A DNA stretch of 64,000 nt from Escherichia coli (GCF_003334305.1 NZ_QOWS01000003.1), one strand, 5' to 3'; counted from the stretch's first letter, positions 156-26,397 are shown. Program-made: numbers and translations. Notes: generated from the letters alone by a model not told the origin.

Positions 156-1493
156 TTAATCTTTGCTTATTGGTGCATCTAAGGGATACGGGTTTTTATG
201 TAGCCGGTTGTAATTCAGCGCATACATGGCGGTGATGACCATCAGGGTGACAAATGACCACATAACCTCTTTCGCTCCGGACCCCACCACGGCCCAGATG
301 CAGTAGAGGAAGGCAATGGTAGTAACTGCCAGATATGCCGGGCGTGCTTTACCAAAGTGACCGTGACCGAGCAGCAGTAACGCCGCACAGGTGTAAAGAT
401 ATGGCACCAGTGTAAAGATGACCGAGACGGAAGAAACCAGACCGAACTCTTTGGTCGCGTTTGGTGAAATGCTGCTGAGCTGGAAGATGGTCATCAAAAT
501 ACCGACGATAATCAGCCCCGCCACTGGCGTACCCGCTTTATTTACACGGGCAAAAATTGGTGGGAACAGTCCGTCATCGGCAGCGGCTTTCGCCGTTTGA
601 CCCGCCAGCAACGTCCAGCCGCCCAGTGAACCTAAGCAACCCGCAGCTGCGCAGAAGGAAACAATGGCCCCGGCGGTGTCACCCAACGCCATCCGTGCGG
701 CATCACCGAATGGCGAAGCAGAAACGCGCAGTGCGGCATTAGGGATCATCCCCATAATCGCGGTGGTAGAAAGTACATAGCAAACGGCGGCAATCAATAC
801 CCCACCAATGGTGGCGATAGGGACATTGCGTTTCGGGTTTTTCACCACACCTGCGGCAACGGAGGCACTTTCCACACCGATGAACGACCACAGCGTAACG
901 TTAAGGGTACTTTGAATTGCACCGAAGGTGCCCAGGCCGCTGACGTTCCATGCCGCCATATAGGTTTCACCACGGAACCAGAACCAGCCAAATACGGCAA
1001 TCCCGACGATGGGGATCAGCGCCAGCACGGTGGCAACTGCCTGCACACGGGTGATCATTTTCGGACCGACAATGTTCAGCAGGACGAAGATCCACAGCAC
1101 CACGACGCAGGTGATGGTTAATACCAATGGATCTTTCAGAATCGGGAAGAAGTAACTTAAATATCCTACGCCAATGACCACCATGGCGATATTGCCGATC
1201 CAGCAGGCCAGCCAGTAGAGGACGTTGGTTTGATAACCGAGAAACGGGCCAAAGCAGCGGCGGGCGTAAGCGTAAGAACCACCAGGACTTGGGTCGAGGA
1301 ACGACATTTTGGCGTATACCATCGAGAGCCCCAGTGCACCGATAATCGTCACCAACCATCCATAAATGGCAATCCCGCCAGTAGAGGCCAGGTTTGCAGG
1401 TAACAGAAAAACACCTGACCCCATAATATTCCCCGACACCATCAGGGTGACGGGGATTAAGCCCACTTTGTGAGCATCAGCATCCGAAGACAT
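156..1493 (-). CDS. adiC: Arginine:agmatine antiporter (APC family)
   Basis: 445-aa ORF; 12-TM amino acid permease signature ([13 protein letters not shown]); paralogous to cadB in this window; position downstream of adiY. Confidence 0.93.
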
Positions 1494-1629
1494 AATTAAA
1501 CTCCTGCGAAGGCGAGCTTCGTGACAATAAATTACGTCATATCATACGCCTGCATTCGATAGTTGAATTATTATCGACCGGGTTATCGCTGATGCCGTTA
1601 TTAATATAGCTCTTCGTTAAGGTTAAAAA

Positions 1630-2391
1630 TCAGGCGACAGTGCGTTCTCTGTGCTGACTAACATAATGCAGCGGCGTCATACCGTAGAAGTCTTTAAAGA
1701 CAGAAATAAAGTACGACGTACTGTTGTAGCCGCAGGACTGTGATACCTGAGAGATATTTTTACCGTCCATCATTAATTCATTTACGGCATAACGCATGCG
1801 GCAGGTGGTGATTATTTGGCTATAACTGGTGTTTTCGCTTTTCAACTTTTTCTTTAACAGACTTGGGCTAAGACATAAACAACTGGCTACCATACTAAGA
1901 TTCCAGTCTTTGTGAATATCGCTTTCAATAATTTGATAAACGCTGTCACTTACACAATTACGTAACATATACATCATTAATGAAAGGAATTTTTTACTGT
2001 CGAGAAAACGGGATAGCACCGTGAATAATAATGCGCGTGTTCGTTCCTTTTCTGACTCAGTTTCTGCGGGCATCATGCTGTGTTGCGCGGCAACGCGAAA
2101 GACGTCTGGCGTCAGGCATGGCAGGGTGAGTATGGGCGTAGCGCTACGTTGCCATACTGGTATTTGCGAGAGATCTTTATTCAGAAACCGGAGGTAATCT
2201 TTGATGATGTCGTGACTAATATGAGCAACCAAAGTGTTGTTAAGAGAGGAGACGTCGATAATATTATTTTCACAATTTAATAACGCCATATGGTTAGCTT
2301 TAAGGCTAATAGGTTCTTTCCCATTCACCCTTATCCAGACATCTTTTTCAGTCAATAAAACAATACAAGGTTGGTCGCTGCAAATCCTCAT
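1630..2391 (-). CDS. adiY: AraC/XylS-family transcriptional activator of the adi system
   Basis: 253-aa ORF with C-terminal AraC-type HTH; AT-rich; between adiA and adiC. Confidence 0.88.
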   Translation of the reverse strand: MRICSDQPCIVLLTEKDVWIRVNGKEPISLKANHMALLNCENNIIDVSSLNNTLVAHISHDIIKDYLRFLNKDLSQIPVWQRSATPILTLPCLTPDVFRVAAQHSMMPAETESEKERTRALLFTVLSRFLDSKKFLSLMMYMLRNCVSDSVYQIIESDIHKDWNLSMVASCLCLSPSLLKKKLKSENTSYSQIITTCRMRYAVNELMMDGKNISQVSQSCGYNSTSYFISVFKDFYGMTPLHYVSQHRERTVA

Positions 2392-2715
2392 ACATGTACT
2401 CCTGAGTGCAAATAAAAGACCAGTTCTCGCTAAAGCAAAGCGATACCGGGAAATGGTTATATAATTGTATGATGAATATAAACATGCATAAAAATAACGA
2501 GTTTTACTAATATTACAAATTTTTATAGTAATTTCTCATGTACATATTTTTTTTACAGGATAAATAACAGGCAAAAAAAGCGCGGGGTGGGGCCGCGCAA
2601 AAAGTATGACATTTTTGTTTGCAGCAATTTTTATGAAAACGTTGCCATACTCAAAAGGCCTAAGGCCAGGCGGCGTAATGTTATTTAAACAATTACGCCT
2701 TCAGCGGAATAGTGG

Positions 2716-24750: not shown

Positions 24751-24754
24751 TGTA

Positions 24755-24784
24755 ATAAAAATTATGCGGCAAATAAATTGCCGC
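24755..24784 (-). terminator. cadC rho-independent terminator
   Basis: gcggcaa-ataaa-ttgccgc hairpin followed on minus strand by T-tract. Confidence 0.45.
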
Positions 24785-24858
24785 AACATATTATACCAAC
24801 GGGAACATACAAAAACTCAACAACAAATATTCCAGAGCATAAATCAACCCGGAGTTAC

Positions 24859-26397
24859 TTATTCTGAAGCGAGAAATTTGTCGAGATAAGGTACAACATA
24901 AGGAACAGAAGTCTGGAATATACCATTTTCAATCCAGTAAAGGGTGTTTGCCCCTGGGCGTAAATTAAAGGCGGTGAGATATGCATCAGCTGCTTCCCGG
25001 TTCATCCCCTTCATTTCATAAACCTTGCCAAGCAATACATAATTTAGCCAGGACATTTCAAGATCAATGCCAGTATTTATCGCCTGGTAAGACTCATCTG
25101 TTTTACCTTTTACCAGAGCACTGACCGCTTTTATTTGATATATAATGGACAGGTTATTCAATTCCGGTAGTGTAACAATGTTATCTATTTCTGTGTTCAG
25201 TGCTGCTAATTGTTTTTCATCTAAAGGATGTTGAGAATGGCGCACGATATCAACTAATGCTTTTTCTGCTCTCGCGTAGGTAAATTCTGGGGATGATTGA
25301 ACAATCTCACCTAATAATTCACTGGCACGGTTCAATGATTTATCATCGCCATGCAGTAAATAATCATGTGCCTGATAAAAATTAGTTAATAACGCACCAC
25401 GATGAGGCAAAATTTGCTGGAGCGTCTCCTGCATTCGTTGTGGCCACGGTTGGTTTAACGCTTTTGATAAACTCTCCAGTAAATCATTTTGAATCGCCAG
25501 CTGATTACCGTTAGTGATGACATAACGTTTATCCAGCATGGTTGAACCATCTGCATTGTCTACCAATTTTATCGACATAAAGCATTGTTGAGCACGGTAT
25601 TGGCGCTGATTAACAAACGCAATAGATAATGTTTTACCGGAACTGCTCGGTTCATCAATGTTGTAGTTGATTTTGTCATGCACCATAAAGGTGGAGAAGG
25701 TGTTAAGTGATGTCGCCACCAAATCACCCACGCCTATCGCGTAAGAGAGCTGATACGGGGAACTCCAGCTATTACAACTTTTATTTACCATATTAATGTC
25801 AATATCGCGTGGATTGAGCAAAATACGCGATTTGCTCATCGGAAGACGTGTATCAAGACTTGAAAACGCTACCAGTGCTACACAGATACCTAAGGACAAC
25901 AGGAAAAAAAACCATACCCAAAAGGTAGTGAATCGTTTGCTTTTAACTGGGGATTGTTCAGGTGGCGTTGCGGTGTTTTGAATGTTAAGACTGTGGGAGG
26001 GAGAATCTGTGGCAGGAACCGCCTCTGGTATAGGGGGAGGCGAAGATAGCATTATTTCCTCTCCCTCTTCTTCGCTGTACCAGATAACCGGCACCATTAA
26101 TTTATAGCCGCGCTTTGGTACAGTAGCGATATAGACAGGACTATCTTCATCATTATCTTTTAATGACTTACGTAGTTCTGAGATACTCTGCGTCACAACA
26201 TGATTGGTGACAATACTTCTCTTCCAGACATTATCGATAAGTTCATCCCTGCTAAGTACTTCGCCACTGTGTTGAGCAAAGAAAACCAGAAGGTCGATTA
26301 ATCTCGGCTCAAGGGTAAGTTGACGCCCATTGCGGCTAATTTGGTTTATGGACGGAGTAACAAGCCATTCGCCAACGCGAACTACAGGTTGTTGCAT
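24859..26397 (-). CDS. cadC: ToxR-like membrane-integrated transcriptional activator of cadBA
   Basis: 512-aa ORF with N-terminal winged-helix domain, single TM, periplasmic domain; contains PPPIP. Confidence 0.9.
   Translation of the reverse strand: MQQPVVRVGEWLVTPSINQISRNGRQLTLEPRLIDLLVFFAQHSGEVLSRDELIDNVWKRSIVTNHVVTQSISELRKSLKDNDEDSPVYIATVPKRGYKLMVPVIWYSEEEGEEIMLSSPPPIPEAVPATDSPSHSLNIQNTATPPEQSPVKSKRFTTFWVWFFFLLSLGICVALVAFSSLDTRLPMSKSRILLNPRDIDINMVNKSCNSWSSPYQLSYAIGVGDLVATSLNTFSTFMVHDKINYNIDEPSSSGKTLSIAFVNQRQYRAQQCFMSIKLVDNADGSTMLDKRYVITNGNQLAIQNDLLESLSKALNQPWPQRMQETLQQILPHRGALLTNFYQAHDYLLHGDDKSLNRASELLGEIVQSSPEFTYARAEKALVDIVRHSQHPLDEKQLAALNTEIDNIVTLPELNNLSIIYQIKAVSALVKGKTDESYQAINTGIDLEMSWLNYVLLGKVYEMKGMNREAADAYLTAFNLRPGANTLYWIENGIFQTSVPYVVPYLDKFLASE

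Follow-up and report, generated by a model that had tools for sequence, protein, structure and literature searches.

The adi and cad acid-resistance modules of Escherichia coli: an old paralogy, regulators probably recruited separately and a probably late juxtaposition

We analyzed a 64,000-nucleotide (nt) stretch of the Escherichia coli chromosome (NZ_QOWS01000003.1, assembly GCF_003334305.1), hereafter the window, which carries two decarboxylase-antiporter modules for acid resistance, the arginine-dependent adi locus and the lysine-dependent cad locus. An initial annotation had taken the two for paralogous systems about 20 kb apart that arose by an ancient duplication followed by replacement of the regulators. 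In each module, the antiporter imports arginine or lysine, a cytoplasmic pyridoxal phosphate (PLP)-dependent decarboxylase uses one proton per turnover, and the antiporter exports agmatine or cadaverine, which bears one more positive charge, so that internal pH rises and a membrane potential is generated. The cytoplasmic AraC-family protein AdiY and the ToxR-like CadC, a membrane-integrated sensor of pH and lysine, each switch on their own module, and the AT-rich promoters of Adi and Cad are silenced by H-NS when uninduced.

Over its first 25 kb, the window shows 100% identity to E. coli chromosomes, and the larger share of this part is found in all 5426 complete E. coli genomes; gene names were taken from the RefSeq annotation of the identical sequence in strain A7. 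All genes and sites of the two modules lie on the minus strand. The adi locus begins with adiC (156-1493), whose product, an arginine/agmatine antiporter of the APC superfamily and its basic amino acid/polyamine antiporter family, scores 892 bits against the NCBIfam equivalog NF007929 (cut-off 574) and matches PDB 3LRB/5J4I over its full length (970 bits). At the other end, adiA (2716-4983) encodes the biodegradative PLP-dependent arginine decarboxylase, recognized by its motifs, by NCBIfam equivalog NF011603 (1705 bits, cut-off 1167) and by a full-length match to PDB 2VYC (1783 bits). The gene of the AraC-family activator, adiY (1630-2391), is inserted between them. The top NCBIfam match of AdiY is GadX, at 154 bits and below the GadX cut-off, and its residues 108-249 are matched by the GadX, YdeO and HilD models; no AdiY-specific NCBIfam model matched at the E value threshold of 1e-10, so that the protein is named after its RefSeq annotation. 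In Salmonella, the orthologue (79% identity) has the Pfam domains HTH_18 (PF12833) and HTH_AraC (PF00165).

The cad locus comprises cadC (24859-26397), cadB (23160-24494) and cadA, also called ldcI (20933-23080). CadA, the inducible PLP-dependent lysine decarboxylase, scores 1628 bits against NCBIfam NF011929 (cut-off 1056) and shows the family motifs. CadB, the lysine/cadaverine antiporter, reaches 920 bits with equivalog NF007754 (cut-off 585) and also exceeds the cut-off of subfamily TIGR00905 (489 versus 409). CadC, the membrane-integrated pH- and lysine-responsive activator, is matched over residues 1-509 by equivalog NF007540 (753 bits, cut-off 400), with a PhoB winged-helix model on residues 5-100. 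In the cadBA promoter, the CadC-binding site Cad1 (24679-24719) is identical at 40 of 41 positions to the K-12 41-mer published as the CadC operator in Pcad (PMC5430869). The six genes are thus the textbook Adi (adiA-adiY-adiC) and Cad (cadC-cadB-cadA) acid-resistance systems of E. coli. The adi locus does not differ from the known arginine-dependent system in sequence, gene order or its neighbors melR and eptA, and the cad locus, apart from the single Cad1 position, is likewise identical to the known Cad system. From their identity with the characterized E. coli enzymes, AdiA and CadA are expected to be substrate-specific, acid-activated decarboxylases. The two systems, the homology of their enzymes and of their antiporters, the distinct regulators and the silencing by H-NS are already known, and structures have been solved.

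Paralogy of the enzymes and antiporters

We compared the proteins of the two modules by pairwise alignment. AdiA and CadA align end to end with 36% identity over 740 amino acids (E = 8e-163), and AdiC and CadB share 38% identity over 447 amino acids (E = 3e-100), values far above background that bear out the paralogy proposed for both pairs. Pfam domains PF03709 (OKR_DC_1_N, the wing), PF01276 (OKR_DC_1) and PF03711 (OKR_DC_1_C) are assigned to the AdiA cluster and its orthologues in precomputed annotation. The sequence blocks cited in the initial annotation are also present as described. DRNCHKS occurs at residues 251-257 of AdiA and 241-247 of CadA, and STHK at residues 383-386 and 364-367, such that K386 of AdiA and K367 of CadA align with each other; these match the known positions of the PLP-binding lysine. 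AdiC and CadB both carry near their N-termini a block that starts with GN(I/M) and contains GSG. The functional positions of AdiC, namely, the GSG motif in transmembrane helix 1 and Y93, W202, E208 and W293, which contact the substrate or form the gate, are all identical in CadB (G22-S23-G24, Y89, W198, E204 and W289); Y74 of AdiC corresponds to I71 in CadB.

These two pairs are not alone. Comparison with speF-potE, ldcC, speC and other paralogues from E. coli K-12 showed that LdcC also has DRNCHKS and STHK and that SpeF and SpeC have DRNNHKS and SVHK; the motifs quoted for AdiA and CadA are therefore family-wide signatures. In an identity matrix, CadA and LdcC are 69% identical and SpeF and SpeC 67%, whereas any comparison across the Adi, Cad/Ldc and Spe lineages gives 31-36%, with SpeF 32-33% identical to both AdiA and CadA. 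Among the transporters, PotE is 32-33% identical to AdiC and CadB, YdgI 23-29% and GadC 24-25%. The two-member picture of the initial annotation is accordingly too narrow: speF-potE adds a third module, and ldcC and speC enlarge the set of paralogues, so that E. coli has at least three decarboxylase-antiporter pairs (Adi, Cad and SpeF-PotE) and two solo enzymes (LdcC and SpeC). The third pair differs from the two in the window in its variant motifs, in lying elsewhere on the chromosome and in lacking a gene for a transcription factor of its own; upstream of it, the annotation places speFL, which encodes a leader peptide. The gadBC genes follow the same logic of a decarboxylase and an APC-family antiporter, but GadB belongs to a different group of PLP decarboxylases, which makes gadBC an analogous module whose enzyme is not a paralogue. 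In E. coli, ldcC has neither an antiporter nor a regulator of its own, and its role is described as metabolic rather than related to acid stress (PMC4832331, PMC6257575).

The separation of Adi from Cad is ancient. In Aeromonas and Vibrio, the orthologues of AdiA, AdiC, CadA and CadB retain 75-90% identity to their E. coli counterparts, while the paralogues within E. coli have fallen to 36-38%. In an unrooted enzyme tree, built without an outgroup, the Adi, Cad/Ldc and Spe clades each received 100% bootstrap support, and the orthologues from Aeromonas, Vibrio and Shewanella fell inside them. The split between Adi and Cad thus long predates the Enterobacterales, in agreement with the Odc, LdcI/C, LdcA and Adc clades of a published phylogeny (Carriel 2018, PMC6257575). 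That study, from which we took the rooting, groups the lysine and arginine enzymes against the ornithine enzymes, derives ldcC from ldcI by duplication within the Enterobacteriaceae, and describes the Adc clade as patchy and affected by horizontal transfer. The decarboxylases belong to one old family, the wing-domain ornithine/lysine/arginine decarboxylases, and the antiporters to another, the basic amino acid/polyamine antiporters.

How the enzymes and antiporters came to be paired may be explained in two ways. Under the first, to which we would give even odds, an ancestral decarboxylase-antiporter operon was copied as one piece to yield Adi, Cad and SpeF-PotE, and the gene order was rearranged later. 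All three decarboxylase lineages of E. coli are indeed paired with antiporters of the same family, and the similarity ranks of the two components agree: AdiA and CadA score 478 bits against each other, compared with 311-360 bits for either against SpeF or SpeC, and AdiC and CadB score 295 bits, compared with 254 and 198 bits to PotE. A neighbor-joining tree of the E. coli antiporters groups AdiC with CadB at 97%, the published rooting likewise sets the lysine and arginine enzymes together against those for ornithine (Carriel 2018, PMC6257575), and the order adiC-adiA in Aeromonas is the same as that of cadB-cadA. Gene order and orientation nevertheless vary among the modules. Furthermore, in wider neighbor-joining trees of 20 antiporter sequences, calculated with three alternative outgroups and three measures of distance, the AdiC, CadB and PotE clades changed their order with distance correction and outgroup. 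AdiC plus CadB received 91-97% support under p-distances; under corrected distances, support ranged from 2 to 63% according to the outgroup.

The second explanation, a serious contender that in our view stops short of being probable, holds that the enzyme and antiporter genes diversified apart and were paired several times, the modules being parallel constructions. It accounts for the differing gene orders and for several exceptional loci. In Shewanella marina (L092, 4276-8289), a gene for an AdiA-type enzyme (68% identical) is divergent from one for a PotE-type antiporter (55% identical to PotE and 36% to AdiC); in Providencia, adiA has no neighboring antiporter; and in Edwardsiella (loci L059 and L061) speF-potE is followed directly by a CadA-like gene. 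In addition, AdiC reaches 400 bits with the model of a histidine/histamine antiporter, more than the 372 bits that it scores with the CadB model, and the histidine/histamine antiporter partners nonhomologous decarboxylases. Each of the observations that favor copying of a whole operon counts against repeated independent pairing, however, and rearrangement and partner swapping after such copying would yield the same exceptions. The mixed pair of Shewanella, the Edwardsiella cluster and the variable gene order do show that the partners can be reshuffled.

Histories of the two regulators

AdiY and CadC showed no significant similarity to each other (best E = 0.11), and each module does possess its own regulator from a different family, AraC-type in one case and ToxR-like in the other. 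To assess how long each has been in place, we examined their linkage to the structural genes in relatives. In Vibrio, Aeromonas and Plesiomonas, a CadC-like gene stands immediately upstream of cadB, its product being 45-64% identical to E. coli CadC in the DNA-binding domain and 22-37% in the sensor domain. This linkage agrees with the figure of 95.5% co-occurrence given by Brameyer et al. (2022, PMC8989999), who found AdiY only in the Enterobacteriaceae. For adi, we took AdiA orthologues at decreasing identity and examined their contigs. Among these loci, AdiY was present only in Escherichia, Salmonella, Kosakonia and Kluyvera, the proteins of the last two genera being 60-63% identical to that of E. 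coli. In Budvicia and Xenorhabdus, adiA abuts adiC without a regulator, and an integrase gene or insertion sequence elements adjoin. In Kosakonia and Kluyvera (loci L088 and L094), the genes form a small adi acid-stress island elsewhere on the chromosome, consisting of adiA, a gene for a 176-residue protein, in some cases an hdeD-like gene, an hdeA-like gene, adiY and adiC, in some cases with another hdeA-like gene at the end.

The wide linkage of CadC, the confinement of AdiY and the abutting adiA-adiC pairs that lack it together argue for independent recruitment at different times. CadC would have been recruited early, before the split of Vibrio, Aeromonas and the Enterobacterales, and AdiY late, within the Enterobacteriaceae, by insertion between adiA and adiC. 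Of the proposal of an ancient duplication followed by regulator replacement, the homology and the ancient divergence are hence supported, but the replacement is not, given how far CadC remains linked to cadBA and how narrowly AdiY is distributed.

Both regulator genes were also described as AT-rich, and they are: the guanine-plus-cytosine (GC) fraction is 0.413 for adiY and 0.418 for cadC (0.457 and 0.384, respectively, at third codon positions [GC3]) against 0.504 for the window, with adiA, adiC, cadA and cadB at 0.48-0.54. The promoters of adiY, cadC and cadBA are bound by H-NS (PMC2984483). We considered whether both genes could be foreign acquisitions of low GC content that replaced an earlier regulator. 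For adiY, the data are in keeping with such an origin. Wherever the gene occurs (E. coli, Salmonella, Kosakonia and Kluyvera), its GC content is lower by 10-12 points than that of adiA and adiC, and its restriction to one family, with GadX as the nearest model, fits late insertion of an AT-rich, H-NS-silenced AraC gene. For cadC they are not. Its GC content is about that of cadBA in six genera (Klebsiella, Raoultella, Enterobacter, Serratia, Edwardsiella and Vibrio), in all of which groups it is linked to cadBA, and among the genera compared it is low only in Escherichia and, more mildly, in Salmonella. Pairwise CadC identity is 50-69% for most of these and the other genera compared, reaching 89% within the Klebsiella-Raoultella-Enterobacter-Buttiauxella group, whereas CadA and CadB are 85-100% identical across the same genera. 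CadC is thus a fast-evolving protein, and the low GC content of its gene in Escherichia is best read as lineage-specific drift, which speaks against a foreign donor. Neither locus retained a trace of a displaced regulator. A common foreign origin for the two genes is therefore unlikely, and their AT-richness reflects two different histories. The idea that the cadC gene of E. coli is an unusual allele imported on its own was rejected as well, because CadC diverges quickly between most genera and only the low GC content of the E. coli gene is special.

Placement of the cad cassette

The Cad system of the window is the proximal part of a larger block, cadCBA-dtpC-lysU, on the minus strand. The peptide permease gene dtpC (yjdL, 19417-20874) follows cadA, and lysU (17663-19180), for the inducible lysyl-tRNA synthetase (NCBIfam NF009101), is the distal gene. 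On the other side of cadC are, also on the minus strand, a 160-bp remnant of a tyrosine recombinase/integrase gene (26657-26816), which corresponds to a RefSeq pseudogene of strain A7 (L001, 29657-29816), and then pheU (27014-27089), a tRNA-Phe(GAA) gene identified by ARAGORN and Rfam, whose 3′ end is directed towards the cassette. Between adiA and lysU are melR, melAB, yjdF, fumB, dcuB, dcuRS, yjdIJ and ghoST, of which melAB, yjdIJ and ghoST are exceptions to the minus-strand orientation of the listed genes. A distance of 15.9 kb separates adiA from cadA, and the module centers are ∼21 kb apart, so the earlier figure of about 20 kb is a fair one.

We next compared the surroundings of cad among species. 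A scan with CadA of one genome per species gave 79 loci, which were retrieved with 10-kb flanks and annotated by tblastn with a panel of window proteins. Within this set, cad lies next to lysU-ghoST-yjdIJ-dcuSR only in two Escherichia loci (L008 and L036). In Serratia, one contiguous run reads accA-ldcC-yaeR-cadC-cadB-cadA-dtpC-tilS, and Hafnia, Edwardsiella, Shimwellia and Enterobacillus have the same order without ldcC. Plesiomonas has accA-cadC-cadB-cadA-tilS and Aeromonas accA-cadC-cadB-cadA. Comparison of the accA-tilS-type loci (L030, L048, L051, L055, L057, L060 and L073) with the ldcC locus of K-12 (L003) showed that this cad site is exactly the E. coli ldcC locus, where ldcC stands at accA-yaeR-tilS; in Serratia the gene adjoins the cad cassette. 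In Salmonella, cad is found between glyA-hmpA and glnB-glrR-qseGE, and the context in Klebsiella is different again. Escherichia albertii (L009) shares with the window a block of 93% identity whose limits fall exactly at position 26466, shortly upstream of cadC, and position 17650, immediately beyond lysU; its neighbors in that species are yicG-ligB-gmk-spoT at one end and, at the other, a mobile element with DUF927/toprim. The dtpC gene follows cadA in most of the 79 loci, those at accA-tilS included, and lysU accompanies cadCBA-dtpC in Escherichia, Klebsiella, Raoultella, Enterobacter and Buttiauxella. Against the species tree, CadA, CadB, CadC and DtpC of E. coli are nearer to the lysU-bearing, Klebsiella-type cassette than to that of Salmonella, a closeness that hints at horizontal exchange.

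The adi locus has stayed in place. Its order in Salmonella, dcuSR-dcuB-fumB-melBA-melR-adiA-adiY-adiC-eptA-basRS, has the same neighbors as in E. coli, and it is missing from only 8 of the 5426 complete E. coli genomes. For cadCBA, there was no match in 158 of these genomes, and in a further 76 less than 80% was covered in one place, a pattern that fits the known loss of cad in some pathotypes.

Linkage of adi and cad is thus not conserved: cad lies elsewhere in every non-Escherichia locus examined and in E. albertii. Since cad occupies other sites in relatives and adi has kept its context in Salmonella, the juxtaposition of the two appears to be late and specific to E. coli-type Escherichia, and relocation is also pointed to by the position of the cassette on the 3′ side of pheU with an integrase remnant and by the variability of cad within the species. 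The cadC-cadB-cadA-dtpC(-lysU) block is a discrete cassette of ∼8.8 kb. The accA-tilS interval next to ldcC is its widespread and probably its ancestral location; in E. coli the cassette has probably landed beside pheU, ∼16 kb from an adi locus stably placed between melR and eptA in both E. coli and Salmonella. Taken together, we assign a probability of about 0.9 to the joint reading that the modules are members of old families, that their regulators were recruited independently and that their nearness is secondary, being due to a late, Escherichia-specific relocation of the cad cassette.

Several points weigh against this reading. No convincing direct repeats flanking the cad cassette were found, and the 3′ end of pheU has no att-like repeat at any other place in the window; on both counts, a classical integrated island at pheU was rejected. 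The direction of movement, with accA-tilS probably the earlier site, follows from the spread of that arrangement across families and in Aeromonas rather than from a formal ancestral-state reconstruction. The 79 loci were picked by similarity to E. coli CadA. AdiY was not found at the adi loci of Budvicia, Xenorhabdus, Aeromonas, Shewanella and Providencia, where an unlinked regulator is possible. Finally, acid induction, antiport and regulator specificity are taken from the literature and from identity with characterized proteins.

A reading of the spacing of the modules as a trace of their duplication is not supported: cad occurs at no fewer than four chromosomal sites in relatives, and adi keeps its melR/eptA context in Salmonella. 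That a regional duplication in this part of the chromosome produced one module from the other is very improbable: the shared strand, the 16-kb distance and the presence of other paralogue pairs in the window (DcuA/DcuB, 36% identical; LysU/EpmA, 31%) would suit it, but cad lies elsewhere in Salmonella, E. albertii, Klebsiella, Serratia, Hafnia, Edwardsiella, Plesiomonas and Aeromonas with adi unmoved in Salmonella, an identity of 36-38% is far older than a juxtaposition specific to Escherichia, and the gene orders differ (cadB then cadA; adiA, adiY, adiC). More generally, the chromosomal closeness of paralogues should be taken for a trace of duplication only after relatives have been checked.

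Two further regional arrangements were considered. The C4-dicarboxylate transporter genes dcuB (11867-13207) and dcuA (29935-31236), whose products form the 36% pair, adjoin fumB and aspA, respectively; a segmental duplication relating fumB-dcuB plus adi to cad plus dcuA-aspA was rejected, since FumB is unrelated to AspA and cad reached its place late. In K-12, speC lies 1.2 kb from the tRNA-Phe gene pheV (L005, 5367-5442), and cadC lies 0.6 kb from pheU, which looks like coincidence; an old regional duplication of pheU/cadC and pheV/speC was likewise discarded, because the similarity covers only 134 bp (the tRNA and short flanks).

The Cad1-like element upstream of lysU and other features

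A 28-nt element on the minus strand at 19300-19327, 120-147 bp upstream of the lysU start codon, was identified through repeat family D2 and by comparison with the published Cad1. It is identical at 23 of 28 positions to the Cad1B/Cad1C part of that site (24679-24706), with which it has an exact 13-mer, TGATATCAACTTG, in common, and none of 5000 shuffled sequences reached this score. The core TGATATCA(A/G)C is kept upstream of lysU in Raoultella, Enterobacter and Buttiauxella, and Klebsiella has a one-base variant. In the window, a possible -35 hexamer follows just downstream of the element, which could be bound by CadC or by some factor shared with Pcad, or could be a chance resemblance. LysU is reported to be acid induced and less cadaverine sensitive than LysS (PMC5078493). 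If the site works, a cadaverine-tolerant lysyl-tRNA synthetase would be coinduced with lysine decarboxylation by CadC or by the factor shared with Pcad.

The occurrence of cad at the ldcC locus in many families suggests that ldcC originated there as a local copy of cadA. One might go further and propose that cadC-cadB-cadA-dtpC-lysU (17650-26466) is a relocatable unit that began at accA-tilS, with ldcC arising at that place from cadA, that it then moved and was perhaps exchanged between genera, and that its lysU carries upstream a copy of Cad1B/Cad1C; as a whole, this scenario is speculative and we consider it doubtful. In their main text, published studies treat the genetic environments of cad and ldcC as separate, and neither an origin of the cassette at accA-tilS nor the Cad1-like copy at lysU is stated in them (PMC6257575, PMC4832331, PMC5430869, PMC5078493). 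The accA-tilS site beside ldcC and the Cad1-like element are modest by-products of the analysis, of use to specialists in acid stress and polyamines, and both need confirmation.

Several lysine-related genes cluster in the window. The genes epmB, efp and epmA (39087-40723 and 47062-48084) lie 13-22 kb from cadC, and EpmA is a paralogue of lysyl-tRNA synthetase, the 31% match to LysU noted above. EF-P and its lysylation are reportedly needed for translation of CadC (cited in PMC5078493). Elsewhere in the window, Rfam matches a guanidine-II (mini-ykkC) riboswitch, a known element, at 41275-41321 on the plus strand (50 bits), upstream of sugE. A tandem of tRNA-Gly(GCC) genes at 56269-56456, also on the plus strand, has two copies, compared with three in strain A7.

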